Virus record (IMG/VR): IMGVR_UViG_2923334124_000004
Strand: one strand, 5' to 3'
Source of the DNA: a virus
Taxonomy: Duplodnaviria; Heunggongvirae; Uroviricota; Caudoviricetes
Length of the DNA: 40,883 bases
Each line of letters starts with the position of its first letter. Positions within the stretch are counted from its first letter, which is position 1. Position numbers and translations under genes: made by a program. The notes beneath the pieces were generated by a model. The model was not told where the DNA came from. It worked only from the letters and a program-made list of their open reading frames with translations, and did not search any database. Shown one piece after another: positions 3,843-27,411 of the stretch.

Positions 3843-5009
3843 TTAAACCCCTTTGACAACGTCAGCGTTGACCTGTGGAACCCCGATTTCAGCGGCCAGA
3901 TTCATGGCGGCTATTACCAGGTTACTGACGGCCAGCGGATACAGCAGGCTGACCATATTTTTACGGTGACTTCCCGGATTGCTCAGGCGGGCACGTATGG
4001 CATCCACTGCACCGGCGTCCATAATGTCCGTCAGCTGTTTACCGGCCCGTTGCAGTTTGAACGTCAGAAATTCTTCAAGGTTATTGTCCAGAGGCAGAAG
4101 TTCGACCACCTCACAGCGCTGAACGACTTCACGGACTTCCATATTGCGTTCAGACAGTTTTGTCGCCAGTTCCGGCTGGCCAATCAGCACGATGGACAGC
4201 AGTTTTTTGAAACCGGACTCCAGCTCAAAAAAGCGTTTGAGGTGTTTCAGTGTCGGAATGGGCAGACTGTGGGCCTCCTCAATCACCAGAACGTGGCTGA
4301 ACCCCGCCTGGCTGCTGTCTTTCAGGACGCGATGCAACTGGCGAAAACGGGCGTCCTGACTGCGTCTGATGCTTTCCAGTGGTGCGATGGTACTGATAAT
4401 GGCTTCGGCAATAGCTGCTGCCTTCAGGGTTTTCCCTTTCACATCGTTGTCTTCCATAGCGATGATGTATGGCTCGATAACAATTACCGGCGCATTCTCG
4501 CGGTTGATACGTTCAGTCAGGTCGCGGCGCAGCGTGGATTTACCCGCACCGGACTCACCGATGACGGCCATAAACCCACCATGACGGGCTGTCTGGTACA
4601 GCGCCTCACGCACGTAGCGAATGTCCGGGGTGGTGAACACATCATCAGAACCCTGCATGGCTTCGTCGGCGAACGGGTCACGGAAAAGACCAAACGCTTT
4701 TTTGGTTGCTGGAAATAACACCTGTTTTTTGAGTAACATATTCTCTTCCTCACTGAGGCTCGTTTTATCTGTGGTACCCGCTGTACGGGGCGTGGCCGCG
4801 CCCTGTACAGCATCAAAACTCTTCGTTGTATCAATCCCCTGACTTTCCAGCCAGGACGCAAGACGCCGGCGCACTTCTCCGGGGCTGGTGCGGGGCCACG
4901 CGTTATGATTCACAATCTGGGCCAGCGTGGCCTCAGAAACATCGACAGCTCTCGCCACCACCGCCTGTGGAATACGGGCCTCTTTCAGTTGCTGCTTCAG
5001 TACCAGCAT
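3843..5009 (-). CDS. MuB-like transposition ATPase (AAA+)
   Basis: Walker A IGESGAGKST; immediately downstream of the transposase; start set to ATG 5007-5009 preceded by AGGAGG (the track ORF begins at an upstream GTG, 5048). Confidence 0.8.
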   Translation of the reverse strand: MLVLKQQLKEARIPQAVVARAVDVSEATLAQIVNHNAWPRTSPGEVRRRLASWLESQGIDTTKSFDAVQGAATPRTAGTTDKTSLSEEENMLLKKQVLFPATKKAFGLFRDPFADEAMQGSDDVFTTPDIRYVREALYQTARHGGFMAVIGESGAGKSTLRRDLTERINRENAPVIVIEPYIIAMEDNDVKGKTLKAAAIAEAIISTIAPLESIRRSQDARFRQLHRVLKDSSQAGFSHVLVIEEAHSLPIPTLKHLKRFFELESGFKKLLSIVLIGQPELATKLSERNMEVREVVQRCEVVELLPLDNNLEEFLTFKLQRAGKQLTDIMDAGAVDAIRARLSNPGSHRKNMVSLLYPLAVSNLVIAAMNLAAEIGVPQVNADVVKGV

Positions 5010-5019
5010 GTTTCCCTCC

Positions 5020-6789
5020 TCAGTTGCCGTTAACAATGCTGATAACACTGCTGCGGGCCGGTGTGGTCAGCGTGGCCATGACTTCATCCAGTGCGGCTTC
5101 CGGTACGCCGTCCGGGTACTGTGCCGTTAACTGGCGGTAATGTTCCGGCGTCCAGGTAAGGCCGTCGGCGCTGAACTTATCGCGCAGGGCTTTCGCGGCC
5201 TCCACATGAGTCATGGGACGTTGTTCAGTGCGCGGCCCGCGTACGTCAGAGGCCTGACCACGCTTCGGCATATAGGCCGGAAGTGTGGTGTCGTCGATAT
5301 GTTTATACGGGTCAAGCCGCCCGCCGAACGGCAGCGCCTTCGCCTTGCGTGCGGCGGCTGCATCTGCGGCGTTGTCTGTACCGGTAACCAGCGCTTCGGT
5401 TTCTTTTGCCGCCATCTGTGCCGGGGTTTCCGGCAGGGCTTTGTAACTTTCGCCAAATACCGCCGCGCCTTCAGCAAAGCCAAACTCGTTCTTTCTGACC
5501 TCTTCGACCAGGAAGAACGTCTCGTGGCCGTCCTCACCGGTCAGAACCACCTGTGCCACATCGCTGCGCCATGGGTTACGGGTAATCATCAGTTTTTCAC
5601 CAACCAGTACGCCCGGTACCGTTGATACGTCAAATTCAGTGCCCCGGAACGAGACACGAAGTTTTGGCGTGACTTTGCGGAGTTCTGGTGCCGCCACAGC
5701 CAGTTCACGACATACCTCAACGGAAGGCGCTTTTTTCAGCTGCTCAGCAGTAATCTTCAGCCAGATATCCGTGCGGGTTTTACCGTGGCGGCTGTGAACA
5801 GCCGTGGCGTTAAAGTGGCTGCGCCATTTCGCGGCCAGCGCGTTGAGTTCTTCCAGACTGTGAACCGGCCGGAACTTCAGACCCGGCTCCAGCTTGCGTT
5901 CGATAATGTCACGCGCCTTTTCCACCTGTCCGGTGGCGCGGGCGTTATGCGGCTTGTGCGCTATCAGGTCGATGCCCAGTGAGCGGCACATGTTTTTCGT
6001 CATACCCGCGGTGTTTGCCGAGCCGGGGTCGAGATAGAGTATTTTCGGCACGCCGTGCAGCACGTCTGCGCCGCCACGCTCCTGCATGGCGTTGATAAGC
6101 ACAGAACACAGGTTCTCACCTGATTCCGCGCCCGTCACATACTCAACGTAAATCCAGCCGCTGGCATGGTCGGTAATCTCGTAACTCCACACGCGGTCAC
6201 TGGCGATACGGGCAAGGTTAGCGGGCTTGTTCTTGTAGAACTTCGCGCTGTCCATCACCTGCAGCCCTTTATGTCCATTGCTCAGGTAGTAAAGCGTGCA
6301 GAGTGAGGCGTCAATCTGCCAGACATGATTGGGATGCAGACTGGCCACTTCGGTATGTGGTGCAGGGGCATCCAGTTGTTCCGGGTGCAGGCCATAGTTA
6401 CGCAGAGCACGGCTGATGGCATCTTCAGACAACGGGAAAAACTCACTGGTGGTTTCATCTGTTCTGCCTGCGGTGATAAAGCCGTTAGCCCGCAGGGTTT
6501 CCACTGCATCTGCGATGGAATAGAGACGCTTACCGTTCTTGCGGGTGGCCTCACGCAGTGTGGCAGATATCAGCGCGGCTTCGTCGCGGGTCAGGGCGCT
6601 GCGCCCGGCATCGGCGCGTTTTTTGCGTTTATCAGTCACAGATACCTCCTTCAGCCTGCGCAGCAGAGTGGCGCGGGACATGCCAAGTTCAGCACAGGCA
6701 GCGTCGTATATTGCACCGCGTTTACCATGCCCCGCGTCACGTGCCGCGCGGGCTGTTTCAACCAGTTTTTCAGTCAGTGCCGGGGTCAT
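5020..6789 (-). CDS. DDE transposase, MuA-like (integrase core domain)
   Basis: 589 aa; N-terminal HTH region, integrase-core motifs (HVWQIDAS...YLDPGS), followed by the B-like ATPase; the right terminus carries Mu-like CATTTATCG repeats. Confidence 0.8.
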   Translation of the reverse strand: MTPALTEKLVETARAARDAGHGKRGAIYDAACAELGMSRATLLRRLKEVSVTDKRKKRADAGRSALTRDEAALISATLREATRKNGKRLYSIADAVETLRANGFITAGRTDETTSEFFPLSEDAISRALRNYGLHPEQLDAPAPHTEVASLHPNHVWQIDASLCTLYYLSNGHKGLQVMDSAKFYKNKPANLARIASDRVWSYEITDHASGWIYVEYVTGAESGENLCSVLINAMQERGGADVLHGVPKILYLDPGSANTAGMTKNMCRSLGIDLIAHKPHNARATGQVEKARDIIERKLEPGLKFRPVHSLEELNALAAKWRSHFNATAVHSRHGKTRTDIWLKITAEQLKKAPSVEVCRELAVAAPELRKVTPKLRVSFRGTEFDVSTVPGVLVGEKLMITRNPWRSDVAQVVLTGEDGHETFFLVEEVRKNEFGFAEGAAVFGESYKALPETPAQMAAKETEALVTGTDNAADAAAARKAKALPFGGRLDPYKHIDDTTLPAYMPKRGQASDVRGPRTEQRPMTHVEAAKALRDKFSADGLTWTPEHYRQLTAQYPDGVPEAALDEVMATLTTPARSSVISIVNGN

Positions 6790-9137: not shown

Positions 9138-9170
9138 ACCGGAAAGCATTGTGCTTTCCGGTTTTGTTTC
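9138..9170 (+). terminator. rho-independent terminator downstream of the repressor gene
   Basis: Stem ACCGGAAAGCA / TGCTTTCCGGT with 3-nt loop, followed by TTTGTTTC. Confidence 0.55.
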
Positions 9171-9933
9171 AGAAGTTGCAGATTAGCAGTTCACGGCGCG
9201 GCGTGGGTTTACCCGCCAGACTGTAGTTGATATTCACTGTCTGTATGTTCAGTCCAGTGAACACCTCGCGCATCTGCGGGATGTCGTTCACCGAAATTAT
9301 CATTTTTCCTCTGATGCACCGGGCCAGCTCTGCCAGCCGCGAGTAGTTCCCTTCAGGAAAATCCACACCATAGCCTTCCGTACCCAGGTACGGTGGGTCG
9401 CAGTAGAACAGCGTGTGCGGACGATCATAACGCTCAATGCACTGTTGCCAGTCCATGTGTTCTATGACTGTTCTGGAAAGCCGCAGGTGTGCCGCTGACA
9501 GTTCTTCTTCAATACGTAGCAGGTTGAAGCGTGGCGGGGATGTGGTGGAGGTACCGAAGCTGTGCTCTGCCACCTTGCCGCCAAACGCCTGCTTCTGAAG
9601 GTAGTAGAACCGTGCCGCACGCTGGATATCCGTCAGTGTTTCTTCCGGGGTGATCTGCAGCCATTTGTAGATCTGACGGCTGACCAGCGCCCATTTGAAC
9701 TGGCGGACAAATTCTTCCAGGTGATGCTTTACCACCCGGTACAGATTCACCAGTTCACCGTTGATATCATTGATGACTTCGATCTTGCCGGGTGTCTTAA
9801 GAAAATAGAGCGCTGCTGCCCCACAAAACGGCTCCACATAACATTCATGCGCCGGAAACAGCGGCAGAATGTGTTTTGCAAGGCGGCGTTTGCCACCAAT
9901 CCACGGCACGATGGGTAATGTCTGCATTTTCAT
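9169..9933 (-). CDS. Dam-family N6-adenine DNA methyltransferase
   Basis: N-terminal PWIGGKRRL...FCGAAAL (AdoMet-binding) and DPPY catalytic motif; start set to ATG 9931-9933 (the track ORF runs to 10023). Confidence 0.8.
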   Translation of the reverse strand: MKMQTLPIVPWIGGKRRLAKHILPLFPAHECYVEPFCGAAALYFLKTPGKIEVINDINGELVNLYRVVKHHLEEFVRQFKWALVSRQIYKWLQITPEETLTDIQRAARFYYLQKQAFGGKVAEHSFGTSTTSPPRFNLLRIEEELSAAHLRLSRTVIEHMDWQQCIERYDRPHTLFYCDPPYLGTEGYGVDFPEGNYSRLAELARCIRGKMIISVNDIPQMREVFTGLNIQTVNINYSLAGKPTPRRELLICNF

Positions 9934-10123
9934 AATCTGCAAGCCTTTTACAATTATTAAAAAATATGGCAGTCTGGTCAGGTCTCGCGAGACTGACTGA
10001 ACCTTGGTCGGCTCACAGCGCATTCCTGTGGGGCGATGACCAGCCCGGCTTTCGGGTGCCGGGCTGGTCGTTCTTTCATGATGCGGCAGGGATGGCGGGA
10101 TTTCTGTTAATGTGGTTTAGGGA

Positions 10124-13627: not shown

Positions 13628-13938
13628 TGGTCGATATTACCCGGGTACGCCGCGAATCCCTGCGCTGGAGTCTGCTGGTTGCCCTGAACAAGACCCGCCC
13701 TTACACCGCCAGCGAGACGCTGCTGCTGGATGTGTCCCGTGCCATCTACCCGGACACCACACCGCTGGAACTGCGCCGCGAACTGGATTATCTGGCTGAC
13801 CGTAAAATGGTTGAGCTGGAGAAAAAACCTTCTGGCGACTGGTTTGCTGACCTGACCCGCCTCGGCGTAGACCTGGTGGAATACACCGTGGAATGTGGTC
13901 CGGGTATTGCCCGCCCGGAAAAGTACTGGAGTGAATAA
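13627..13938 (+). CDS. hypothetical phage protein
   Basis: 103 aa ORF translationally coupled (TAATG) to neighbours in the late operon. Confidence 0.4.
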   Translation: MVDITRVRRESLRWSLLVALNKTRPYTASETLLLDVSRAIYPDTTPLELRRELDYLADRKMVELEKKPSGDWFADLTRLGVDLVEYTVECGPGIARPEKYWSE

Positions 13939-14483
13939 TGGCCAGACGCAGCACAATAGAAAAGCTGCCGGAAGACGTGCGCCGCTGGCTTGAACGGGCG
14001 CTGACTGAATCCGGCTTCAGCGGGTATAACGAGCTGGAGTCACTGTTGCGTGAGCGGGGGTACGTCATCAGCAAATCCGCTATCCATCGCTATGGACAGA
14101 AGATTGAGCGCCGCTATGGTGCTATCCGTGCGGCAACAGAAGCGGCCCGCATGCTGACCGAAGGCGCAGCAGACGATCAGGATGCGCGTTCGGAGGCTGT
14201 GATAGCCCTTATTCAGACCGAGCTGTTCGAGAGTATTGTCCAGTTGCAGGAGGCGGAAGAAGGCGAAGTCGATCCTAAAGAACGCGTGGCCCTGCTGTCG
14301 AAGGTGGCGAAGAATGTGGCTACGCTGTCCCGCGCGTCCGTCAACCTCAAAAAGTTCCAGTCTGAAGTACGGGCCAGAGCGCAGCAGGCAGCCAGCAACG
14401 CCGAGAAAATTGCCCGTAAGGGGGGACTGTCAAGCGACGCAGTACAGGCGCTTCGTCGCGAGATTCTGGGGATTGCCACATGA
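13938..14483 (+). CDS. terminase small subunit-like protein (Mu gp27-like)
   Basis: 181 aa; position immediately upstream of the large terminase; helical, charged DNA-binding-like N-terminus. Confidence 0.5.
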   Translation: MARRSTIEKLPEDVRRWLERALTESGFSGYNELESLLRERGYVISKSAIHRYGQKIERRYGAIRAATEAARMLTEGAADDQDARSEAVIALIQTELFESIVQLQEAEEGEVDPKERVALLSKVAKNVATLSRASVNLKKFQSEVRARAQQAASNAEKIARKGGLSSDAVQALRREILGIAT

Positions 14484-14777
14484 CAAAATCATCCGGAGTG
14501 ATTTTAAACGCCGCTGGCGGCGGCCCCGAAGGGATGAGTCCCATGGACGGGAGGAATAACCTTGCTCCCGTTTTGCCTGATACCTCGGCGCTGGATGCCC
14601 CTCCCGTTCTGTTGCCTTACCAGCAGCGCTGGGTGGCAGACACCTCTCCGCTTAAGGTGATAGAAAAGAGCCGTCGTACCGGTATTACATGGGCTGAGGC
14701 ATCCGATAACGTACTGACCGCCGCCTCTTCTGCGCCAGCAGGCGGGATGAATGTGTATTACATCGCTTATAACCAGG
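14480..14777 (+). pseudogene. terminase large subunit, 5' fragment (interrupted by an IS66-family element)
   Basis: The reading frame runs into the IS at 14778; joining 14777 to 17318 restores one continuous frame (...YNQ-D-MTVEYIQ...) of about 531 codons. Confidence 0.7.
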
Positions 14778-14862
14778 GTAAGCGTAAACTGACCGCCGTA
14801 TGTAGCCATCAGACGAGAATTGGTAACTTAGACGCCCATCTGATATAGACGGACATCTAAGT

Positions 14863-15288
14863 ATGGAATTACAGGACTGGCGAAAAGAACCTCGTAAAAA
14901 CTATTCGAATGAATTCAAACTTCGTATGGTGGAACTGGCATCACAACCTGGAGCTTGTGTTGCACAGATTGCACGTGAAAATGGCGTCAATGATAATGTT
15001 ATTTTCAAATGGCTCAGGCTCTGGCAGAACGAAGGGCGTGTTTCGCGGCGTCTTCCGGTAACGACCTCTTCTGACACTGGCGTTGAATTATTACCTGTAG
15101 AAATAACGCCGGATGAGCAGAAAGAACCTGTGGCGGCCATTGCGCCGTCTTTATCCACTTCCACTCAGACCAGAGTCAGTGCCAGTTCCTGCAAGGTGGA
15201 ATTCCGTCACGGTAACATGACGCTGGAAAATCCATCGCCAGAGCTGCTCACAGTGTTGATCCGTGAACTGACCGGGAGGGGAAGATGA
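14863..15288 (+). CDS. tnpA: IS66-family accessory protein TnpA (orf1)
   Basis: 141 aa, first ORF of the IS; HTH-like N-terminus typical of IS66 orf1. Confidence 0.7.
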   Translation: MELQDWRKEPRKNYSNEFKLRMVELASQPGACVAQIARENGVNDNVIFKWLRLWQNEGRVSRRLPVTTSSDTGVELLPVEITPDEQKEPVAAIAPSLSTSTQTRVSASSCKVEFRHGNMTLENPSPELLTVLIRELTGRGR

Positions 15289-15635
15289 TCTCACTCCCAT
15301 CAGGTACCCGTATCTGGCTCGTTGCCGGCGTTACCGATATGCGTAAATCCTTCAACGGACTGGGAGAACAGGTACAACATGTGCTGAATGATAATCCCTT
15401 CTCCGGTCACCTGTTTATCTTCCGTGGCCGACGGGGTGACACCGTCAAAATTCTTTGGGCTGATGCTGATGGTCTGTGCCTGTTCACCAAACGCCTGGAG
15501 GAAGGCCAGTTTATCTGGCCTGCGGTACGTGACGGCAAGGTATCCATTACCCGCTCGCAACTGGCAATGCTCCTCGATAAGCTGGACTGGCGTCAGCCAA
15601 AAACATCCAGCCGTAACTCACTGACAATGTTGTAA
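15285..15635 (+). CDS. tnpB: IS66-family protein TnpB (orf2)
   Basis: 116 aa; overlaps orf1 by 4 nt as is usual in IS66; conserved IS66 orf2 character. Confidence 0.7.
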   Translation: MISLPSGTRIWLVAGVTDMRKSFNGLGEQVQHVLNDNPFSGHLFIFRGRRGDTVKILWADADGLCLFTKRLEEGQFIWPAVRDGKVSITRSQLAMLLDKLDWRQPKTSSRNSLTML

Positions 15636-15665
15636 AAAACTCCTGACCGCATTATAAAAACGGTC

Positions 15666-17279
15666 ATGAGTCAGAAATACCTCATTCGCATCGCAGAGCT
15701 GGAAAGGTTGCTCTCTGAGCAGGCTGAAGCCCTCCGTCAGAAAGACCAGCAACTGAGTCTGGTTGAAGAGACGGAAGCCTTCCTGCGCTCTGCACTGACA
15801 CGTGCCGAAGAAAAGATCGAAGAAGATGAACGGGAAATAGAACATCTGCGGGCTCAGATAGAAAAACTGCGCCGGATGCTGTTCGGTACCCGTTCTGAAA
15901 AACTGCGTCGTGAAGTTGAACTGGCTGAGGCTCTGCTGAAACAACGTGAACAGGACAGCGATCGTTACAGTGGGCGGGAAGACGATCCTCAGGTTCCCCG
16001 CCAGTTGCGACAGTCGCGCCATCGTCGTCCGTTACCGGCACACCTTCCCCGTGAAATACACCGCCTGGAGCCAGAAGAAAGCTGTTGCCCGGAGTGTGGC
16101 GGTGAGCTGGATTATCTGGGGGAAGTCAGCGCTGAACAGCTGGAACTGGTGAGCAGTGCCCTGAAAGTGATCCGCACAGAACGGGTAAAAAAAGCCTGTA
16201 CAAAATGTGACTGTATTGTTGAAGCACCGGCGCCGTCCCGCCCGATAGAGCGTGGTATCGCGGGCCCCGGATTACTTGCCCGCGTGTTAACGGGAAAATA
16301 CTGCGAACATCTGCCACTGTATCGTCAGAGTGAAATCTTTGCCCGCCAGGGTGTCGAACTGAGCCGGGCCTTACTCTCCAACTGGGTTGACGCGTGCTGC
16401 CAGTTAATGACACCGGTGAATGATGCCCTGTACCGTTATGTAATGAACACCCGCAAGGTTCACACTGATGACACACCGGTAAAGGTACTGGCACCGGGTC
16501 AGAAAAAGGCGAAAACAGGGCGTATCTGGACGTATGTCCGGGATGATCGCAATGTGGGTTCGTCATCTCCTCCAGCGGTCTGGTTCGCGTACTCGCCGAA
16601 CCGGCAGGGGAAACACCCGGAGCAACACCTCCGCCCCTTCCGGGGTATCCTGCAGGCGGATGCGTTCACAGGTTACGACAGGTTGTTCAGTGCAGAACGT
16701 GAAGGTGGTGCACTGACAGAAGTTGCGTGCTGGGCCCATGCCCGGCGAAAAATCCACGATGTATACATCAGCAGCAAAAGTGCGACGGCAGAAGAAGCCC
16801 TGAAGCGAATCAGTGAACTGTACGCCATCGAGGATGAAATACGGGGATTACCGGAGTCAGAGCGTCTTGCCGTCAGGCAGCAGCGAAGCAAAGTGTTACT
16901 GACGTCGCTGCATGAATGGATGGTGGAGAAGAATGGTACGCTGTCGAAAAAATCCAGACTGGGCGAAGCGTTCAGCTATGTACTGAATCAGTGGGATGCC
17001 CTCTGTTATTACAGTGATGACGGTCTGGCGGAGGCGGATAATAATGCTGCGGAAAGAGCGCTTCGTGCAGTCTGTCTCGGAAAGAAAAACTTTATGTTCT
17101 TTGGCAGCGATCACGGCGGCGAGCGTGGAGCACTGTTGTACGGGCTGATCGGCACCTGCCGTCTGAACGGTATCGATCCGGAAGCGTATCTGCGCCATAT
17201 CCTGAGCGTACTGCCGGAATGGCCTTCCAACCGAGTTGACGAACTCCTGCCATGGAACGTAGTACTCACCAATAAATAA
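15666..17279 (+). CDS. tnpC: IS66-family transposase TnpC
   Basis: 537 aa; N-terminal leucine-zipper-like coiled coil, CxxC...CxxC zinc motif (CPECG...CTKCD), and a DDE-type core, typical of IS66 transposases. Confidence 0.8.
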   Translation: MSQKYLIRIAELERLLSEQAEALRQKDQQLSLVEETEAFLRSALTRAEEKIEEDEREIEHLRAQIEKLRRMLFGTRSEKLRREVELAEALLKQREQDSDRYSGREDDPQVPRQLRQSRHRRPLPAHLPREIHRLEPEESCCPECGGELDYLGEVSAEQLELVSSALKVIRTERVKKACTKCDCIVEAPAPSRPIERGIAGPGLLARVLTGKYCEHLPLYRQSEIFARQGVELSRALLSNWVDACCQLMTPVNDALYRYVMNTRKVHTDDTPVKVLAPGQKKAKTGRIWTYVRDDRNVGSSSPPAVWFAYSPNRQGKHPEQHLRPFRGILQADAFTGYDRLFSAEREGGALTEVACWAHARRKIHDVYISSKSATAEEALKRISELYAIEDEIRGLPESERLAVRQQRSKVLLTSLHEWMVEKNGTLSKKSRLGEAFSYVLNQWDALCYYSDDGLAEADNNAAERALRAVCLGKKNFMFFGSDHGGERGALLYGLIGTCRLNGIDPEAYLRHILSVLPEWPSNRVDELLPWNVVLTNK

Positions 17280-17317
17280 GCGTCAATACGGTGCTCCGTT
17301 GACGCTTACTAACCAGG

Positions 17318-18615
17318 ACATGACCGTCGAATACATTCAGGCGTGTGCGATGTGGGCACGGGCATTCAACTATGCGGCCAGTGAAATTGAAGAAGGATTC
17401 TGGGAAGAGGACGACGACGACAAACACATCAAGACTTACACCATCAAATTTCCTGACTCCGGCTTTCGTATTGTTGCGCTCTCCAGCCGCCCGTCTAACC
17501 TGCGTGGCCGTCAGGGTATTATTGTTATCGACGAAGCGGCGTTCCATGAGCAACTGGACGAACTGCTGAAAGCGGCGCTGGCGATGCTTATCTGGGGGGG
17601 AAAGGTACGCGTTATCTCCACCCATGACGGTGACGACAATCCGTTCAATACGCTTATCGGGGATATCCGTGCCGGACGTCAGGGAGGCAGCATACATCGC
17701 ATCACTTTCCGGGAAGCCGTATCTGAGGGGCTGTTCCGGCGCGTCTGTCTGCGCACCGGGAAGGAATGGTCGGAGGCATCCGAGCAGGCCTGGATGGCAT
17801 CGGTGTACAAATTCTACGGTGCCGGCGCATCCGAAGAGCTTGACTGTATTCCGGCCAACGGTGGCGGTGCCTGGCTGTCCCGTGCCCTGATAGAGTCCCG
17901 CATGTCCGCTGATACGCCGGTATTGCGTCTGACCTGCAAGGAAGGTTATGAACTGCTGTCTGATGAGGTTCGCTTCCGCGAGACGCAGGACTGGCTTGAT
18001 GAGTATCTGAAACCATTGCTGGAGGCACTCCCCACTGATGCCCGCTCTTTCCTGGGGCGCGACTTTGGCCGTAGCGGTGATTTGTCGGTGGACTATCCCC
18101 TGCTGCAGGAGAAGAACCTGGTACGACGCGTGCCATTCGTACTGGAGCTGCGTAACGTGCCGTTCAGACAGCAGGAGCAAATCACCTGGTATCTGATGGA
18201 TGGCCTGCCCGGTCTGCTGGGTGCAGCGTTTGATGCCCGTGGTAATGGTGCCTATCTGGCTGAATACGCCATGCAGCGCTACGGCTCCGGCCGGGTTCAG
18301 CAGGTGATGCCAACCGAAGGCTGGTACCGGGAGCATATGCCTCCGGTCAAAGCTGCACTGGAAGACGGCAACCTGGTGGACTTACCAAAGGATGAAGACA
18401 CACTGGATGACCTGCGGGCCGTTCAGGTGGTGAACGGTGTCCCCCGCGTACCGGAGCAACGCTCAAAAGCAAAGGCTGACGGTGGTAAACGCCACGGGGA
18501 TTCAGCCATCGCACTGGCGCTGGCGTATTTCGCCAGCCGTGAAATTAACAAAGGGCCGGTGAAGGCAAGCTCACGCCGTCGTCGTCAGGCGGCCCGTATG
18601 CTGGAGGGATTCTGA
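17318..18615 (+). pseudogene. terminase large subunit, 3' fragment
   Basis: In frame with the 5' fragment once the IS and one TSD copy are removed; the C-terminal region is consistent with a terminase nuclease domain. Confidence 0.7.
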
Positions 18616-20111
18616 TGGCGAGGGGTATCTGGGTTTCACCCGATGAATTTGTTGCTTTTTCTGAGCCTCAGAAATCACTGACCGCGCAGATTGCCTCCCG
18701 CAGCCGCGCGATCGACTTTTACGGACTGGGCATGTATCTGCCCAATCCTGATCCCATTCTCAAGGCTCAGGGACGGGATATCCGTATCTACCGCGAACTG
18801 CGCACCGACCCGCTGGTCGGGGGCTGTATCCGCAGACGTAAAGCAGCGCTCAAATCGCTGGAGCGTGGACTGGAGCGTGGTCACGCCTCTGCCCGGGTCT
18901 TCCGTTTCATCCGCGACATGCTCGACGATCTGGATCTGTCCCGCATCATCGGTGAAATGAGCGATGCCGTGCTCTACGGGTATCAGCCCTGTGAAATCAT
19001 GTGGGGCCGTTCGGTCAGGTCGTGGGCGGTGACGGATATTGTCGGCAAACCGCCTGAGTGGTTTCAGTTTGATACGGACAACTGCCTGCGCTTTCGGGCG
19101 CGTGATGCGGGTGTGGAGGGTGAGCTGCTGTCACCGTCAAAATTCGTGGTGCCGGCACAGGATGCCTCGTATGACAATCCTTACGGTTTCCCGGACCTGT
19201 CCATGTGCTTCTGGCCGGTCGCCTTCAAGAAAGGCGGGATGAAATTCTGGCTCCGCTTTGCCGAAAAGTTTGGCTCCCCGTGGGTGATCGGTAAGCACCC
19301 GAGGGGCGCAAATGATGCAGAGATTGAAAAACTGCTGGACTCCATGGAGCAGATGGTGGAGGACGCGGTGGCCGCCATCCCCGATGACAGCAGTATTGAG
19401 CTCAGGGCAGCGGATGGCAAGGCAGACAGCAGCGAGGTATTTCGCGAGCTGATCACACTGTCACGCAGTGAGATCTCCATTGCATTACTCGGTCAGAATC
19501 AGACCACGGAAGCGAACAGTAACAAGGCCTCTGCACAGGCCGGGCTGGAGGTAACGGCTGATATCCGCGATGCGGATGCGGACATCATTCAGGCGGCAGT
19601 GAATCAGGTCATCAGAACGGTGGTCACCCTGAACTTCGGCGATGTGCCGTGTCCGGTCTGGGCCATGTGGGAACAGGAGGCCATTGATGACACCCGTGCC
19701 ACCCGCGACGAAAAACTCACCCGGGCGGGTCTGCGTCTGACCCCGCAGTACTTCAAGCGTGAGTACCAACTGCAGGACGGCGATATTGACGAGACACCAC
19801 CGTCGGAACGCCAGAATAACATGCTGCCGCTGTCATTTGCCGAGGCGATTGATGCTGATATTCAGGCTCAGCAGCAGCTTGACGACGCGCTGGACATTCT
19901 GATGAACGGAGGCGCGTTAAATGGCACGCTGGAACCCGTCCTGGCACCTCTGTTCAGGCGGGTCGAAAACGGGGTTAACCCGTCTGAGCTGCTGGGCGAA
20001 CTGGCGGAGCTCTACCCTCAGATGAACACGGACGATCTGCAGGAGCGGCTGGCCCGCATTCTCTTTGTGGCAAATATCCGGGGACGTCTGCATGAGCGTG
20101 ACAACGGCTGA
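18615..20111 (+). CDS. portal protein (Mu gp29-like)
   Basis: 498 aa; immediately after terminase; start overlaps the terminase stop (TGATG). Confidence 0.75.
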   Translation: MARGIWVSPDEFVAFSEPQKSLTAQIASRSRAIDFYGLGMYLPNPDPILKAQGRDIRIYRELRTDPLVGGCIRRRKAALKSLERGLERGHASARVFRFIRDMLDDLDLSRIIGEMSDAVLYGYQPCEIMWGRSVRSWAVTDIVGKPPEWFQFDTDNCLRFRARDAGVEGELLSPSKFVVPAQDASYDNPYGFPDLSMCFWPVAFKKGGMKFWLRFAEKFGSPWVIGKHPRGANDAEIEKLLDSMEQMVEDAVAAIPDDSSIELRAADGKADSSEVFRELITLSRSEISIALLGQNQTTEANSNKASAQAGLEVTADIRDADADIIQAAVNQVIRTVVTLNFGDVPCPVWAMWEQEAIDDTRATRDEKLTRAGLRLTPQYFKREYQLQDGDIDETPPSERQNNMLPLSFAEAIDADIQAQQQLDDALDILMNGGALNGTLEPVLAPLFRRVENGVNPSELLGELAELYPQMNTDDLQERLARILFVANIRGRLHERDNG

Positions 20112-20913
20112 ACTGGCGTACTGCATGACGCTTCCCCCGAAGCGGGCAATCAACTACCTGAAGTCCAAAGGATATCAGATTACCTGGGACTGGGAAGAAA
20201 TGTGGCAGGAGGCCCATGCCCGCGCCTTTACCGTTGCTAAAGTGACCCGCCTGGATATCCTGGAAGATATTCGCGGGGCACTGCAGCAGGCTGTCGATGA
20301 AGGAAAAACCGATCGCTGGTTCCGGCAGGAGCTGGAGCCGGTGCTGAAGCGTAAGGGATGGTGGGGACCACGTGACACGACTGACCCGGTAACGGGTGAG
20401 CCGGTCACCATTCAGCAGGGCAGTCCGTGGCGGCTCGATACCATCTTTCGCACCAATATGTCCGTACTCTACAGCGCCGGTCGTTGGGCGGAACAGATGG
20501 AAAACGTCGACGACAGGCCGTACTGGATGTATACCGGCATCAACGACAGCCATACCCGCAGGAGCCATCTGGCGCTGCATGGTCTGGTGCTGCGCTGGGA
20601 TGACCCGTTCTGGCAGGCATTTTACCCGCCGAACGGCTGGCGCTGCCGCTGTAGTGTTATTGCCCTGAGTGCGGCGGATGTACGTGCCCGTGGCCTGAAG
20701 GTTATCAGCTCCGGCTCTGCCATGGGCCAGGAACTGAAACTGGTCTCAGAGAAAACCGGCGAAATGCGGAACGTGGCCACCTTTAATACCGGCACCACGA
20801 AGGTGACCACCGACGTCGGCTGGTCTTATGCTCCGGGGGCAGCATACCGTCCCGACCTGGCCCGCTATCAGGGTACGCTTCAGCCACTGGCACAACAGGA
20901 ACTGAGAGGATAA
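20092..20913 (+). CDS. head morphogenesis protein (Mu F-like)
   Basis: Conserved NDSHTRRSHLALHG...PPNGWRCRC region typical of Mu F/SPP1 gp7 proteins; start set to ATG 20092. Confidence 0.75.
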   Translation: MSVTTAELAYCMTLPPKRAINYLKSKGYQITWDWEEMWQEAHARAFTVAKVTRLDILEDIRGALQQAVDEGKTDRWFRQELEPVLKRKGWWGPRDTTDPVTGEPVTIQQGSPWRLDTIFRTNMSVLYSAGRWAEQMENVDDRPYWMYTGINDSHTRRSHLALHGLVLRWDDPFWQAFYPPNGWRCRCSVIALSAADVRARGLKVISSGSAMGQELKLVSEKTGEMRNVATFNTGTTKVTTDVGWSYAPGAAYRPDLARYQGTLQPLAQQELRG

Positions 20914-20915
20914 CA

Positions 20916-21374
20916 ATGGCTTCCGATAACCTGGTCAGTATCACCATTAACGATAAGTCCCTGCGCCGGAGCCTCCGTGCGCTGGATCTTGCTGCCACAG
21001 ACCTGGAGCCCGCGATGCGCAAAATCGCCGGAACCCTGCTGGCGGAAACACAGTTTAACTTTCTTGATGAGGGGCGTCCGGGGTGGATGCCCTCGCTGGC
21101 AGCGGAAGAACGTGACGGGCAGACACTGCAGGATACCGGGCGTCTGATGGGGTCAGTATCAACCGACCATGACGACCGGCAGGCTGTTGTGGGGACCAAC
21201 GTTGTTTACGGTGCCATTCACCAGTTCGGGGGTAAAACGGGGCGTAATGAGTCTGTTGAACTTCCGGCCCGCCCGTTCCTGCCGGTGACGGGGGATGGAG
21301 AACTACAGCCTGAAGTGGTAATCCCCATCCTCGATACCATTGTCCGCCATCTTGAATCAGCGGCCCGTCGCTGA
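20916..21374 (+). CDS. virion morphogenesis protein (Mu G-like)
   Basis: 152 aa; position after the F-like gene; similar in size and character to Mu G. Confidence 0.55.
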   Translation: MASDNLVSITINDKSLRRSLRALDLAATDLEPAMRKIAGTLLAETQFNFLDEGRPGWMPSLAAEERDGQTLQDTGRLMGSVSTDHDDRQAVVGTNVVYGAIHQFGGKTGRNESVELPARPFLPVTGDGELQPEVVIPILDTIVRHLESAARR

Positions 21375-21429
21375 GTTTTCTCTCTTCAGGCGGGTGATTT
21401 ATCATTGCCAGCGAATGAGGGGCTGTATT

Positions 21430-21441
21430 ACCTTTATAAAG
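21430..21441 (+). promoter_or_regulatory. 12-bp palindrome CCTTTATAAAGG in a 214-bp noncoding gap, candidate late-promoter/activator site
   Basis: Perfect dyad within the only large intergenic gap in the head module (21375-21588); shares the CCTTTAwwA core with three other late-operon upstream regions. Confidence 0.3.
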
Positions 21442-21588
21442 GCTTTACAGCCTCTGTTTTATAACCGCCTCCGGTTCACCGCATTGCTTTCCCTGTCCTT
21501 CTCCCCTGATGTTTTCTAAAGCAGATTAAAATCGCCGGGCCTGCATTTCTCACAAACTGTCTCCGACAACATAACGCGGGACAGCAAA

Positions 21589-22704
21589 ATGTCAGCCATT
21601 CACATTTTTAAAGCCGGTACTCATACCGATATGCACGGCAAAAAACTGCCGTTCACGCCAGACGATCTTGCCGCCTGCGTGAAAGCCTATGACCCGTCCG
21701 TCCATGAAGCACCACTCGTGATTGGTCATCCCAGAACGGAAGACCCGGCGTGGGGCTGGGTGAAAGCCCTGTCGCTCAGCGGCGTCGATCTGATGGCAGA
21801 GCCTGCCCAGCTGGACCCGCAGTTTGCTGAGATGGTCACCGACGGACGATTCAAAAAAGTGTCCGCCTCTTTCTACCTCCCGGATTCACCGTCCAATCCG
21901 AAGCCCGGCGTGCTCTACCTTCGCCATGTGGGCTTTCTCGGGGCACAGCCACCTTCCGTCAAGGGGCTGAAACAGGTGTCCTTCAGTGAGCAGGAAGAAG
22001 GTGTGGTGGAGTTCGCCGACTGGCAGGCCATCACGAATGCCTCCCTGTGGGGAAAGCTGCGCGATTTTCTGATCGCCCGCTTCAGTCTGGACGAGGCAGA
22101 AAAAGTCCTGCCGGAATGGCAGCTCAACAGTCTGCGCGAAGAGGCGTACCGCGACACACTGTCGCAGGATGCAGCAGGTGCACAATTCAGTGAGACAGGC
22201 CCGGGGCCGTCTTCCGCAAGTAACGAGGAATCATCGATGACAAAAGAAGAGATTGAAGCCCTTCAGGAGGAGAACCGCCGCCTGAAGCAGCAGGCTGCTG
22301 ATCGCGATGCGCGTGATGCACAGGTCAGACAGGAGCAACTGCATAAGGACAATGTGGCCTTTGCAGAAAAACTGGTCGCAGAGGGCCGTCTGGCTCCCCG
22401 CGCCTCCTCCGTGGTGGTTGCCCTGCTGGATGCCGTCGCCGGTGGCGACAAGCCGGTGGAGTTTGCTGAGGGGGAAAGCCGCACACCGCTGGCCACCGCC
22501 TTTCGTTCATTGCTCTCCGACGGGGAGCCGGTGATGAATTTCGCCGAACAGGCCACAAAAGAGCGTGTCGGCGACACGGTGAAGGTGGATGTGGCAGAGT
22601 TTGCGGAAGCCGATCCTGAGCGTCTGGCCCTGCATCAGAAAGCAGTGGCCCTGTCCAAAAAAGAAGGCATCAGCTATGAGGCTGCTGTCGCACGCTGCCT
22701 GTAA
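21589..22704 (+). CDS. head maturation protease/scaffold (Mu I-like)
   Basis: 371 aa; N-terminal protease-like domain then a charged helical scaffold-like C-terminus; directly upstream of the major capsid gene. Confidence 0.65.
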   Translation: MSAIHIFKAGTHTDMHGKKLPFTPDDLAACVKAYDPSVHEAPLVIGHPRTEDPAWGWVKALSLSGVDLMAEPAQLDPQFAEMVTDGRFKKVSASFYLPDSPSNPKPGVLYLRHVGFLGAQPPSVKGLKQVSFSEQEEGVVEFADWQAITNASLWGKLRDFLIARFSLDEAEKVLPEWQLNSLREEAYRDTLSQDAAGAQFSETGPGPSSASNEESSMTKEEIEALQEENRRLKQQAADRDARDAQVRQEQLHKDNVAFAEKLVAEGRLAPRASSVVVALLDAVAGGDKPVEFAEGESRTPLATAFRSLLSDGEPVMNFAEQATKERVGDTVKVDVAEFAEADPERLALHQKAVALSKKEGISYEAAVARCL

Positions 22705-22718
22705 TTTAAGGAGAGAGC

Positions 22719-23672
22719 ATGTCTGATTACTTAAAAGGTAAACGTGTCGTTGATCCGGTACTGACCAGTATCGCCCGTGGCTATAAAAATGCCGCATTCA
22801 TCGGCGAACGTATTTTCCCCGTCGTGCTGACGGACAAGGAAGGCGTGCGTGTACCGACCTTCGGGAAAACCGCCTTTGTGGAATATGACACCGAGCGTGC
22901 CGTCGGGGCGGACAGCAATGTTCTGGTCCGTGAAAAAACAGGCACGCTGGACCTGGTGCTGGGTGAACACGATCTGGCTGCGCCGGTGGACTATCGCGAG
23001 CAGGCGGAGTCCATGTTTAACGAAGAGAGCAAGGCCATCCGTCGCGCCACGAATGGCGTGAACCTGCGCCGTGAACTTATCGCTGCCCGTCTGGCTCAGG
23101 ATGAAAAGGTCTACCGTACCGGGCACGTCAAAAAACTGACAGCCAGTGATCGCTGGGCCGGTGGTAAGGGGGACCCCATCGGGGTGATTGAAGCCGGTAT
23201 GGAAGCGGTCCGTACGGCCACGGGGCTGCGTCCTAACCTGATGACCATGGGGGCCGGCGTGATGGCGCTGCTGAAGTTCCACCCGGCGATTCAGGCCGCC
23301 ATCGGAGCCAACGAACGCAAGCGCATCACCACAGAAATCCTGCAGGACCTCTTTCAGATCGAAGAGATCGTCATCGGTGCCCCAGTCTCCCTGCCGTCCA
23401 TGAAAGCGGCAATGGATAAGAACAGCGTGCCGGCGGATATCTGGGGAGACAATCTGATGCTGCACTATGTCGGCAAACCGCAGCCGGGGGCGGACAGCGC
23501 GGACGAGAACGAGCCGTCCTTCGGCTACACCCTGCGTCGTAAGGGGATGCCTGTTGCCGACAAATACGACGGAGCCGGTGGCAAGGTGAAGTACTGCCGT
23601 TATACCGATATCTACAAAGTCGCCGTGGTTGGTGGCGATGCCGGGTATCTCATTACCGGTATCAGTAAATAA
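22719..23672 (+). CDS. major capsid protein (Mu T-like)
   Basis: 317 aa; position and size; preceded by AAGGAGAGA. Confidence 0.75.
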   Translation: MSDYLKGKRVVDPVLTSIARGYKNAAFIGERIFPVVLTDKEGVRVPTFGKTAFVEYDTERAVGADSNVLVREKTGTLDLVLGEHDLAAPVDYREQAESMFNEESKAIRRATNGVNLRRELIAARLAQDEKVYRTGHVKKLTASDRWAGGKGDPIGVIEAGMEAVRTATGLRPNLMTMGAGVMALLKFHPAIQAAIGANERKRITTEILQDLFQIEEIVIGAPVSLPSMKAAMDKNSVPADIWGDNLMLHYVGKPQPGADSADENEPSFGYTLRRKGMPVADKYDGAGGKVKYCRYTDIYKVAVVGGDAGYLITGISK

Positions 23673-23681
23673 GGAGGCGTT

Positions 23682-24020
23682 ATGGGAACCACTCAGCAGG
23701 TCATTCTGATCACAACCGTAACGGCAGGGGCAGCACTGGCACAGCAGCGTTTTGTCGGGGCAGATAATACCCCCTGTAAAGCCGGTGCCGCAGCGCTCGG
23801 GGTTGCCGAAGTGGATGCTGTTACCGGCGACAGCACGCCGGTGAGCGTTCTGGGCATTATTGCTGTCGAGGCCGGGGCCGCTGTCAGCCGTGGTGTGGCT
23901 GTTCAGTCAGATGCTCAGGCCAGAGCCGTGCCGCAGTCCGGCGACGGTAAATCCTGTGGTATTGCACTTGATGAAGCCGGGGGTGAAGGCGACGTCATTC
24001 GTATCCTGCGCGGGGTGTGA
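23682..24020 (+). CDS. small head-associated protein (DUF2190-like)
   Basis: 112 aa Ala/Gly/Val-rich protein immediately after the major capsid gene. Confidence 0.45.
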   Translation: MGTTQQVILITTVTAGAALAQQRFVGADNTPCKAGAAALGVAEVDAVTGDSTPVSVLGIIAVEAGAAVSRGVAVQSDAQARAVPQSGDGKSCGIALDEAGGEGDVIRILRGV

Positions 24021-24021
24021 C

Positions 24022-24468
24022 ATGTACTGCACCCTGGAGGATTTGCTTGCGCAGGTGCCGGAGCGGACGCTTATCGAGCTCACCAGTGAAGAGATGGACT
24101 TCGACTCACCTGCAACAGTGAATACCCGTGTGGTGGACAGCTGTATCCGCTATGCCGACGAGCTGATTGATGCCCATCTGCGCGGACGCTATATCCTGCC
24201 ACTGGCAGAGATACCGACTGTTCTGCGGGACATTGCCATCACGCTGGTCCGTTACCGGCTCTACGCCCGCCGCCCGGAAGGTGACCTCCCGGATACGGTG
24301 AAGGATGACCACAAAGAAGCGCTGCGGCAACTCAGGGAGTTACGTGATAACAGGCTCACGCTGGGGCTGCCGTCCACTCAGAAAGATGTGCCTGAGCCTG
24401 GCGAGTTTCGTGTACGCAGTCGCCCGGCCACTTTCGGCGGTCGTGACGGTTTACTGGAGAAATACTGA
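24022..24468 (+). CDS. head-tail connector protein (Mu gp36-like)
   Basis: Start set to ATG 24022 (overlaps the previous stop); position between the head and tail modules. Confidence 0.5.
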   Translation: MYCTLEDLLAQVPERTLIELTSEEMDFDSPATVNTRVVDSCIRYADELIDAHLRGRYILPLAEIPTVLRDIAITLVRYRLYARRPEGDLPDTVKDDHKEALRQLRELRDNRLTLGLPSTQKDVPEPGEFRVRSRPATFGGRDGLLEKY

Positions 24469-24932
24469 TGAACGTTCTGCCCGTCCTTGATGCGGTACTG
24501 GCCCGGTTACGCGAGAAGCTGCCGCAACTGCAGGTGGAGTACTTCCCGGAGAAACCGGCTGAATATCGCCTGAACCATCCGGTTGGCGCGTTGCTGTTGA
24601 GCTATGCCGGTTCGCGCTTTGACAGGCCGGATGATACCGGTGCGGTGATCCAGTCTCAGACTATCCAGCTCTGCGTCACGGTGGTCTTCCGCCAGCTCAA
24701 CGGTAAAAAAGGGGCGATTAATGTCCTGGATGCTGTCCGCCGCATTCTCGGTGGCCACACCCCGCCCGGCTGCCGCCGCCGTATCTGGCTGACCCGCGAG
24801 GTGTTTATCGGTGAAGTCAGGGGGCTGTGGCAGTACGCCCTCGACTTCGCGACTGAAAGCGTCTTTATCGAAGACAGCGATTTACCGTCCGGCCCGCTGT
24901 TAACCGAAGTGAACTATGAGGAAAGCGAGTGA
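24468..24932 (+). CDS. head-tail joining protein (Mu gp37-like)
   Basis: 154 aa; translationally coupled to its neighbours. Confidence 0.45.
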   Translation: MNVLPVLDAVLARLREKLPQLQVEYFPEKPAEYRLNHPVGALLLSYAGSRFDRPDDTGAVIQSQTIQLCVTVVFRQLNGKKGAINVLDAVRRILGGHTPPGCRRRIWLTREVFIGEVRGLWQYALDFATESVFIEDSDLPSGPLLTEVNYEESE

Positions 24933-25183
24933 TGAAAGAATACCGCTATTCCGGCCCGGCCAGCGGCGTCACGCTGTCGGACGGAACCGAAATCCTGCTC
25001 TGGCCGGGGAAGACGGTTTCCCTGCCGGAGGAGCATGACTACGTGAAGGTACTGGTGGCGCTGAAACATCTGACGCCGGTACCTGAAGAGACTAAACCCG
25101 CCGGCACACCGGCTGTGCAGTCACCAAAGCGCAGAAGCAGCAGTGACAGCGAAGTGAAAACGGAGGACACCCATGGCAGCTAA
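24929..25183 (+). CDS. hypothetical phage protein (Mu gp38-like position)
   Basis: 84 aa ORF immediately upstream of the sheath gene. Confidence 0.4.
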   Translation: MMKEYRYSGPASGVTLSDGTEILLWPGKTVSLPEEHDYVKVLVALKHLTPVPEETKPAGTPAVQSPKRRSSSDSEVKTEDTHGS

Positions 25184-26600
25184 CTATCTGCATGGTCCCG
25201 AAACCATTGAGGTGGAAAACGGTGCCCGCCCGGTTAAAACGGTGAAATCTGCCGTTATTGGCCTGATTGGTACCGCCCCGATGGGGGATGTCAATACGCT
25301 GGTACAGTGCCTGTCTGAGAAAGACGCAGCGGCATTTGGCAGCCAGTTCACCGGCTTTACCATTCCGCAGGCGCTGGATGCGATTTATGACCATGGTGCA
25401 GGCACCGTTCTGGTCATTAACGTCCTCGACCCGGCGAAACATAAAACGGCGATCGAGGATGAGGTGGTTACCTTTGACAAATCGACAGGGCAGGCCAGAC
25501 TGGCGCATCCGGTTGTCGCTAATGTGGTGGTGAAAAACAGTGAAGGCAGCACCACCCACACGGCGAACACGGACTACCGTGTTGATGCGCAGGCGGGTGT
25601 GCTCACGAACCTGGGCAAGGCTATTGAGGCCGGTGGCAGCGTGAAGGTGAGCTATGAGTACGCGGACCCGTCGAAGGTGACTGCGGCGGACATCATCGGC
25701 GGGGTGAACAGCGCCGGAAACCGAACCGGCATGAAGCTGCTTAACGACAGCTTCAACCTGTACGGCTATTTCGCCAAAATTCTGATTGCGCCGGTGTTCT
25801 GCACCCAGAAGAGTGTCGCAGTTGAGCTTATCGCCATGGCAGAGAAGCTGGGCGCGGTAACCTACATTGATGCGCCTGTCGGTACCACCTTTGCACAGGC
25901 TCTGGCAGGTCGTGGCCCGGAAGGCACCATCAACTTCAATACCAGCTCCGACCGCGTCCGTCTGTGCTATCCGCATGTGAAGGTATATGACCCGGTGACA
26001 AACACAGAGCGTCTGGAGCCGCTCAGCCAGCGTGCAGCAGGTCTGCGTGCCAGAGTCGATCTGGACAAGGGCTACTGGTGGTCATCCTCCAATCAGGAGA
26101 TTCTGGGGATCACCGGCGTGGAGCGCCAGCTGTCCGCGATGATTGATGACCCGCAGAGTGAGGTGAACCTGCTTAACGAACAGGGGATCACCACGGTATT
26201 CAGCAGTTACGGCAGCGGCCTTCGTCTGTGGGGTAACCGGACGGCAGCATGGCCAACGGTCACCCATATGCGTAACTTTGAGAACGTTCGCCGCACCGGT
26301 GATGTGATCAACGAGTCCATTCGTTATTTCAGCCAGCAGTACATCGACATGCCGATTACTCAGGCGCTGATTGATGCACTGACGGAGTCGGTCAACGCCT
26401 ACGGTCGCAAAATGACTGGTGATGGTGCGGTACTGGGCTTCCGTTGCTGGTTTGATCCGGCCCGCAATCCGGAGACGGAGCTGGCCGCCGGGCACCTGTT
26501 GCTGAGCTACAAATATACGCCACCACCGCCGCTGGAGCGACTGACGTTTGAGACTGAGATCACCTCGGAATACCTGTTAACCCTGAAAGGGGGCAACTGA
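25173..26600 (+). CDS. contractile tail sheath protein
   Basis: 475 aa; N-terminus YLHGPETIEVENGARPVKTVKSAVIGLIG is typical of sheath proteins; followed by the tube gene. Confidence 0.8.
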   Translation: MAANYLHGPETIEVENGARPVKTVKSAVIGLIGTAPMGDVNTLVQCLSEKDAAAFGSQFTGFTIPQALDAIYDHGAGTVLVINVLDPAKHKTAIEDEVVTFDKSTGQARLAHPVVANVVVKNSEGSTTHTANTDYRVDAQAGVLTNLGKAIEAGGSVKVSYEYADPSKVTAADIIGGVNSAGNRTGMKLLNDSFNLYGYFAKILIAPVFCTQKSVAVELIAMAEKLGAVTYIDAPVGTTFAQALAGRGPEGTINFNTSSDRVRLCYPHVKVYDPVTNTERLEPLSQRAAGLRARVDLDKGYWWSSSNQEILGITGVERQLSAMIDDPQSEVNLLNEQGITTVFSSYGSGLRLWGNRTAAWPTVTHMRNFENVRRTGDVINESIRYFSQQYIDMPITQALIDALTESVNAYGRKMTGDGAVLGFRCWFDPARNPETELAAGHLLLSYKYTPPPPLERLTFETEITSEYLLTLKGGN

Positions 26601-27121
26601 TGTCAAAGATTGAGATAAACCGCATCACGAATGCCAACATCTATCTGGATGGTACTAACCTGCTGGGACGGGCTGAGGAAGTTAAACTCCCCGATGTCTC
26701 CATGATTATGCAGGAACACAAGGCGCTGGGGATGGTGGGTAAGGTGGAACTCCCGGCTGGTTTTGACAAACTGGAAGGCGAAATCAAATGGAACAGCTTT
26801 TACCGCGATGCGATGCTGTCTGCCGCGAACCCGTACAGGTCGCTGGCACTGCAGTGTCGTTCCAGCGTCCAGCGCTACAGCTCGCAGGGGCTGATTGACG
26901 AAATCCCGCTGGTCACCTTCCTGACGATTATGTTCAAGAAGAACCCGCTGGGGACGTTCAAACAGCACGAGAACGCCGAGTTCTCCAGTAGCTTCACCTG
27001 CACGTATATCAGACAGGTACTGGATGGTGAAGAGCTGCTGCAACTGGACTATCTGGCCAACATCTTCCGGGTCGGCGGTGTTGATCAACTGACTGACTAC
27101 CGTATCAATATCGGGGGCTGA
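26600..27121 (+). CDS. tail tube protein
   Basis: 173 aa; position directly after the sheath gene. Confidence 0.65.
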   Translation: MSKIEINRITNANIYLDGTNLLGRAEEVKLPDVSMIMQEHKALGMVGKVELPAGFDKLEGEIKWNSFYRDAMLSAANPYRSLALQCRSSVQRYSSQGLIDEIPLVTFLTIMFKKNPLGTFKQHENAEFSSSFTCTYIRQVLDGEELLQLDYLANIFRVGGVDQLTDYRINIGG

Positions 27122-27123
27122 CG

Positions 27124-27405
27124 GTGAGTGTTGAACTGACGGATAAAGGAGGACGATGTGCGGCACTGGGCATGTCAAATGGTACGTGGTTTACCCTCCT
27201 TGATATTCCGGGGGTGGAAACCCTTTTTAATACCCGTAAAACCAATGACCCGATTGACTGCACACGTTCAAAGGCCCGCAAACTGGCGGATTTGATTGAA
27301 GCATGGGAGCCTCCCGACCACTGGTTCTCCGGCATCGGCAAATCTGAGGGAAAGACGCTTCTCATCGCTTTCCTGCGTAACTGCAAGGGGTTTCGCACTT
27401 GCTGA
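27124..27405 (+). CDS. hypothetical protein (between tube and chaperone genes)
   Basis: 93 aa ORF starting at GTG 27124; an alternative internal ATG exists at 27172. Confidence 0.35.
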   Translation: MSVELTDKGGRCAALGMSNGTWFTLLDIPGVETLFNTRKTNDPIDCTRSKARKLADLIEAWEPPDHWFSGIGKSEGKTLLIAFLRNCKGFRTC

Positions 27406-27411
27406 CATCAC

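Follow-up and report, generated by a model that had tools for sequence, protein, structure and literature searches.

ISEc23 in the large terminase gene of a Mu-like Phi2 prophage of Escherichia coli

Prophages of Escherichia coli can be grounded when a mobile element disrupts an essential morphogenesis gene, as in the cryptic prophages of O157 and K-12. Insertion sequences (ISs) of the IS66 family are described as having imperfect inverted repeats of about 20-30 bp beginning GTAAGCG. An 8-bp target duplication is the reported rule for the family (PMC6778807, citing Machida et al. 1984). Phi2, a Mu-like prophage of the sequence type 131 (ST131) strain EC958, carries the orphan methylase M.EcoMIV and an invertible segment of 2,067 bp whose inverted repeats are 227 bp long (PMC4659465, PMC4134206). 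Here we describe a stretch of 40,883 nucleotides (IMG/VR record IMGVR_UViG_2923334124_000004; below, the window), in which a copy of the IS66-family element ISEc23 splits the large terminase gene (terL) of a prophage corresponding to Phi2. We explain the locus by a simple and recent ISEc23 transposition into terL of a Mu-like, BcepMu-type prophage, namely Phi2 of ST131, near-identical to Escherichia phage PhiKM, and we give this reading a probability of roughly 0.9. Neither the IS nor the prophage, the terminase family or the phenomenon is new, and RefSeq already annotates the insertion; the event is an ordinary one.

The ISEc23 element and its target duplication

The element and its edges comprise the following features.

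14778-17309, + strand: ISEc23 (IS66 family), 2,532 bp, oriented as terL; 100% identical to annotated ISEc23 copies
14778-14801: left terminal inverted repeat, GTAAGCGTAAACTGACCGCCGTAT, matching the right end at 20/24 positions
17286-17309: right terminal inverted repeat, ...ATACGGTGCTCCGTTGACGCTTAC, an end conserved in four other copies
14863-15288, + strand: tnpA, accessory helix-turn-helix protein of 141 aa; PF01527 (HTH_Tnp_1), E=5e-12
15285-15635, + strand: tnpB (IS66 Orf2), 116 aa; PF05717 (TnpB_IS66), E=1e-36; NF033819
15666-17279, + strand: tnpC, DDE transposase of 537 aa; PF03050 (DDE_Tnp_IS66), E=9e-98; NF033517
14770-14777: left copy of the target-site duplication, TAACCAGG, 8 bp; a single copy in the empty site
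17310-17317: right copy of the target-site duplication, TAACCAGG, 8 bp

An earlier reading of the window, made from the letters and open reading frames (ORFs) only (below, the sequence-only reading), had proposed a 2,532-bp IS66-family element with inverted repeats and a tnpA-tnpB-tnpC arrangement; all of its coordinates were borne out, and Pfam and NCBIfam agree with the family assignment. The inverted repeats are imperfect, the first eight of their 24 positions being perfect and starting GTAAGCGT. The three genes lie on one strand in the order typical of the family, with tnpA and tnpB overlapping in an ATGA at 15285-15288. TnpC also matches zf-IS66 (PF13005), LZ_Tnp_IS66 (PF13007) and IS66_C (PF13817), all above the Pfam gathering score, as are the Pfam matches of TnpA and TnpB. 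Similarly, the NCBIfam scores exceed their cut-offs for TnpC (NF033517, 452 bits against 180), TnpA (NF047595, 83 against 74) and TnpB (NF033819, 121 against 50).

Many E. coli chromosomes and plasmids contain elements that are identical to this copy over its whole 2,532 bp (100%) and that RefSeq labels 'IS66-like element ISEc23 family transposase' (WP_000080195.1), together with tnpA and tnpB; the name ISEc23 is taken from this RefSeq/PGAP annotation as a proxy for the ISfinder reference. In gene order, GTAAGCG-type imperfect repeats and 8-bp duplication the window element is like ISEc23 and its relatives IS66, IS679 and ISCro1, and from ISEc23 it shows no detectable difference; the window simply holds one more copy, at a site of its own. 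Of 5,426 complete E. coli genomes, 4,795 have matches to ISEc23, an abundant element with a median of three places per genome.

The 8-bp sequence TAACCAGG occurs only twice on the + strand of the window, both times at an IS edge, and the repeat cannot be extended in either direction (A versus C preceding it, G versus A following it). A match of 8 bp at two prescribed positions would arise by chance with p = 4^-8, about 1.5e-5. Four independent copies elsewhere, three chromosomal and one on a plasmid, are base-identical to the window IS and end in the same terminal nucleotides, and they are flanked by 8-bp direct repeats that are different in each case (GCTCTTTC, ACATAAAA, TTAACAAG and CATTAAGC); the five target 8-mers, that of the window included, have no common motif. 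The idea that the 8-mers belong to the element is ruled out by these four identical copies with different flanks. Because the flanks differ elsewhere and the empty site holds a single TAACCAGG, the 8-mers are duplicated target, and the intact duplication proposed from the letters holds.

The interrupted gene and its empty site

The two pieces of terL lie between the genes for the small terminase (terS) and the portal.

13938-14483, + strand: small terminase gene (Mu gp27-like), directly upstream of terL; Phage_Mu_Gp27, E=1.3e-56; PHROG 426
14480-14777, + strand: 5' part of terL, codons 1-99; identical to PhiKM terL; a RefSeq pseudogene fragment in strains BLSE177-2012 and Esc31
17318-18615, + strand: 3' part of terL, codons 100-531, including the C-terminal half; a RefSeq pseudogene fragment in the genomes carrying the insertion
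18615-20111, + strand: portal gene (Mu gp29-like), directly downstream in the same late operon; Portal_Mu, E=1.6e-89; PHROG 113

Deleting 14778-17317, that is, the element and one copy of the duplication, joins 14480-14777 to 17318-18615 in a single ORF of 531 codons, as had been predicted, with the IS breaking the gene between codons 99 and 100. All 531 aa of the rejoined protein are identical to those of the annotated PhiKM large terminase (100%; PQ738613.1, Bcepmuvirus). The protein also aligns end to end with BcepMu gp28 at 62.6% identity and matches PHROG 2 (terminase large subunit) with E=4.7e-39. To Mu gp28 it is 49% identical (residues 42-506 versus 43-511, E=1e-152), and this alignment is gapless at the junction, where ...YYIAYNQ/DMTVEYI... 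of the window stands against ...FYVGSRQ/EMALEYI... of Mu (the slash marks the junction). The assignment of the split gene to the large terminases, made before any database search, is upheld by these alignments. The sequence-only reading had named two ways in which it could fail, a rejoined frame that did not align along its length with large terminases and 8-mers that were part of the IS; both were examined and neither is the case.

Two stretches, EKSRRTG(I/L)TWAEA and VIDEAAFHE, are conserved with Mu gp28. The first contains KSRRTGIT (residues 63-70; EKSRRTGLTWAEA in Mu), which is retained on the N-terminal fragment, while IIVIDEAAF (residues 167-175; VVIDEAAFHE in Mu) and everything beyond it lie 3' of the IS. 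By analogy with T4 gp17, we take KSRRTGIT to be a Walker-A-like and IIVIDEAAF a Walker-B-like motif. The N-terminal ORF continues into the element to a stop at 14848, giving 99 native and 23 IS-encoded residues (122 aa). Past the IS, the first in-frame ATG is at 17320 (Met101), preceded by an AGGA; because the spacer is only 2 nt, efficient translation restart at Met101 seems unlikely.

Like gp28 of Mu (gene E) and of BcepMu, to which it is homologous over almost its full length, the gene occupies the place between gp27 (terS) and gp29 (portal); unlike them, it is a pseudogene in two pieces. We also considered the interrupted gene as a portal, following an old label of Mu gp28, and rejected this, given the flanking Phage_Mu_Gp27 and Portal_Mu genes and the PHROG 2 match.

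In the Mu RefSeq record NC_000929.1 (Mup28, 3400-5055 of the fetched stretch), gp28 is labelled 'putative portal protein', which is an old annotation. Mu gp28 is a large-terminase homologue and gp29 the portal, and the label could mislead annotation transfer.

A comparison with other genomes of the species, suggested by the sequence-only reading, found the uninterrupted allele. Of the 5,426 complete E. coli genomes, 603 match a 400-nt rejoined junction containing TAACCAGG once, at a coverage of at least 80%; in 520 of these the identity is at least 99% (100% among the matches listed). EC958, JJ1886 and JJ1887, which are ST131 references, are among those with the empty site, and compared with the intact allele the two halves of terL carry zero substitutions. 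The IS-terL junction itself was found in three genomes only, BLSE177-2012 (urine, Belgium), Esc30 and Esc31, each of about 5.2303 Mb, where RefSeq already annotates the terL halves as pseudogene fragments around ISEc23. An exact look-up of the 122-aa junction-spanning ORF among 153 billion gene positions returned three contigs, one of them from Esc30; these are most likely the same three carrier assemblies. The accession series and the nearly equal sizes suggest that Esc30 and Esc31 derive from BLSE177-2012, in which case the three effectively amount to one natural lineage. A literature search on BLSE177 found no paper. The insertion is young, as the sequence-only reading had supposed: its IS does not differ from other copies, the terL halves are unsubstituted and the phylogenetic spread is narrow (three related assemblies against 603 empty-site genomes).

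Consequences of the insertion and other explanations

The IS transposase cut the target at TAACCAGG with the 8-bp stagger usual for the family, leaving the perfect duplication. Neither fragment of terL would then form a working packaging ATPase-nuclease, and this copy of the prophage could not package its own DNA; we regard the loss of packaging as very likely because the break separates the Walker-A-like from the Walker-B-like motif. The repressor, transposase A/B, lysis, head and tail genes are as in the intact reference, so that induction would still be expected to replicate the element and lyse the cell, presumably yielding no infectious particles. The earlier statement that the other structural genes are intact is correct relative to the references, as they are base-identical to PhiKM over the overlap and show only minor differences from EC958 Phi2. 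In Mu-type headful packaging, an insertion comes at the cost of host DNA, less of which is packaged at the right end. Even with the terminase complemented, this prophage, being 2.5 kb longer, would probably have its right end left out of the headful.

Several results weigh against this explanation or its consequences. The predicted loss of packaging draws on homology and motif position. The Pfam model Terminase_6N covers residues 61-290 of the rejoined protein with 20.0 bits, just below its gathering score of 22; the NCBIfam search of this protein gave no match, and a sequence search of PDB chains gave chance matches only (E>0.3), with no solved structure. No intrinsic terminator above chance was found within the IS, which bears on polarity over the portal and head genes, and a promoter and terminator scan of 13.9-18.7 kb gave nothing above shuffled expectation. 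We found no paper on virion production by intact Phi2 or PhiKM, the search for PhiKM returning papers on phiKMV and phi-km18p only. In addition, it appears, from counts only, that the three carriers harbour another related prophage whose terL junction is uninterrupted. A 9.3-kb head/tail block occurs in two places in each carrier, compared with one in most genomes. Moreover, each of the 603 matching genomes covers at least 80% of the intact junction at one place, and the carriers must belong to these genomes, as the 200-nt halves of the junction in them would produce matches. In these strains 'defective' may not mean 'no particles', since the second copy could supply terminase in trans.

The carriers are themselves different from the window and from each other, with a mosaic patch of about 50 single-nucleotide polymorphisms (SNPs) at 19915-31762 and single-base frameshifts in different late genes. 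The tape-measure gene (27996-30947) contains a 261-bp in-frame tandem repeat at 29812-30346, present as two copies that are 93% alike in the window and as three copies in the carriers, whose tape-measure gene is 3,213 bp long instead of 2,952 bp. The mosaic patch and the third repeat suggest gene conversion, or polishing cross-talk, between two prophage copies, and the repeat number may make tail length vary from one prophage copy to another. That the window is identical to a carrier assembly is ruled out by the patch and by the two versus three repeat copies. The best match in strain S7, considered as a second prophage copy because it seemed to lie at another coordinate, proved to be the aroA-ycaL Phi2 again, in a genome whose numbering differs.

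The alternative that survives best, though we judge it unlikely, is that the prophage was already non-productive in its lineage and that the IS is a neutral passenger instead of the disabling lesion. The missing proof of Phi2 virions, neither published nor computed, agrees with this idea, as do the IS insertions in other late genes of other Phi2 copies (below) and the state of a close relative in E. coli IAI39. The latter (2.00-2.04 Mb) lies within a lom-like gene of a lambdoid prophage, adjoining sitABCD, and has internal stop codons in terS, in a small tail gene and in a gp25-like baseplate gene; it shows another route of decay, by point mutation and not by IS insertion. Against the passenger idea, every ORF of the window prophage matches the reference, and about 30 of the approximately 31 full-length late regions with at least 99% identity, taken from an evenly spaced sample of matching genomes, are uninterrupted. 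Moreover, switching by the tail-fibre invertase still takes place in EC958 (PMC4134206), and in the window the segment has the opposite orientation. A copy that is 100% identical over the overlap has another host gene beside it in the PhiKM record (20234-20576): the same prophage left end abuts on 343 bp of a gene annotated as an Fe2+ ABC-transporter permease, which implies an integration site other than aroA-ycaL, and relatives lie at other sites. The PhiKM tail-fibre gene is cut at the boundary of the invertible segment and the record is titled 'partial genome'; it looks like a circularly permuted prophage or a host-junction assembly, not a finished virion genome. Some genomes carry two or three matching places for Phi2 sequence. 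Taken together, the differing sites, the multiple copies and the switching of the invertase favour, if indirectly, a Phi2-type phage that was mobile recently.

A second and distinctly less probable alternative is that the insertion was selected, the recurrence of ISEc23 in Phi2 morphogenesis genes reflecting host-level disarming or a target preference of ISEc23 and not random insertion. At least three independent ISEc23 sites in Phi2 late genes speak for it: besides terL, the element lies in the tail-assembly chaperone gene of isolate 30859_5#12 (NZ_OZ040994.1; 9208-11695 of the fetched stretch) and in the virion-morphogenesis (Mu G-like) gene of strain 23070 (NZ_CM190136.1; 2774-5309 of the fetched stretch). 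EC04 (NZ_CM169497.1) has the IS21-family element ISEc62 within the head/tail block. However, given how abundant ISEc23 is, it is unremarkable to meet a few insertions when a target of 37 kb is surveyed in about 600 genomes; the target 8-mers lack a shared motif, and a terminase knockout would not save the induced cell from lysis. IS insertions in Phi2 recur in a small minority of copies, and in these counts, which are not phylogeny-aware, we saw no evidence of targeting or selection. That ISEc23 knocks out ST131 Phi2 morphogenesis genes more often than chance is, in our view, improbable; were it true, it would point to an insertion bias of one IS66-family element towards the Phi2 late operon, or to selection for prophages that are grounded, shedding no virions while retaining immunity and the orphan methylase.

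That the flanks were not originally contiguous, through an assembly artefact or an IS-mediated rearrangement, can be set aside as highly implausible: IS elements and duplicated prophages do cause misassemblies, and the carriers differ mutually and from the window in the mosaic patch (19.9-31.8 kb), but the 8-bp duplication is perfect, the flanks rejoin exactly to the allele of 603 genomes, and the junction is identical in three complete assemblies.

Compared with the cryptic prophages of O157 and K-12, the window prophage, read as the product of a simple ISEc23 transposition, is at a very early stage, with one lesion and without secondary mutations or deletions. Its importance beyond bookkeeping is small: it is a textbook-clean first step of prophage decay, with a single IS, a perfect duplication and no secondary damage. 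The insertion marks one ST131-associated lineage, BLSE177-2012 and its derivatives, and could serve as a strain marker; it also cautions against treating the Phi2 of these strains as an autonomous, inducible phage.

The host prophage

1-39422: Mu-like (Bcepmuvirus-type) prophage, Phi2 of ST131 strain EC958; right end ...ATCA at 39422
39423-39428: right copy of the 6-bp TTCTTC duplication
9169-10023, - strand: Dam-like, D12-class orphan adenine methylase gene, corresponding to M.EcoMIV
36659-38708: invertible tail-fibre cassette (G-segment-like)
36659-36887 and 38480-38708: inverted repeats of the cassette, 229 nt, 94%
38772-39344: gene for a Gin-type serine invertase

The left end of the prophage is 163 bp before window position 1 (4718 in the fetched carrier stretch L002), and the prophage is 39,585 bp long, or 37,045 bp when the IS is left out. 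The ends are TGAT...ATCA and, compared with the empty site of K-12, the prophage is inserted in ycaL, next to aroA, with the TTCTTC duplication. Site and gene content are those of EC958 Phi2, with terL split by ISEc23 in the window. Once the IS is taken out, not one base differs from PhiKM in the sequence where the two overlap, and against EC958 Phi2 the sole remaining differences are a 3-bp indel at 10207 and changes at the invertible segment.

The prophage, which fills almost the whole window, carries homologues of Mor and gp16, Gam, transposition protein B (PHROG 296), the DDE transposase A (PHROG 310) and a repressor region. It also carries the Dam-like methylase, lysis genes, terS, terL, the portal, homologues of Mu F and G, a protease, the capsid, the sheath, the tube, the tape measure, the baseplate and the invertible tail-fibre segment with its invertase; Mor, gp16, Gam, Mu F and Mu gp36/37 were identified in RefSeq and Pfam annotation. 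A scan of the whole window with Rfam gave no matches. The cassette holds alternative fibre C-termini and assembly genes on opposite strands. The methylase M.EcoMIV of EC958 Phi2 is reported to be transcriptionally silent under laboratory conditions (PMC4659465).

The integration also affects the annotation of the neighbouring host gene. The prophage sits in codons 2-3 of ycaL (ATG AAG AAT), and the native start codon and promoter are stranded beside the right end, 39.6 kb from the body of the gene. RefSeq calls a longer ycaL that starts within the left end of the prophage (WP_029364556.1), and likewise in EC958.

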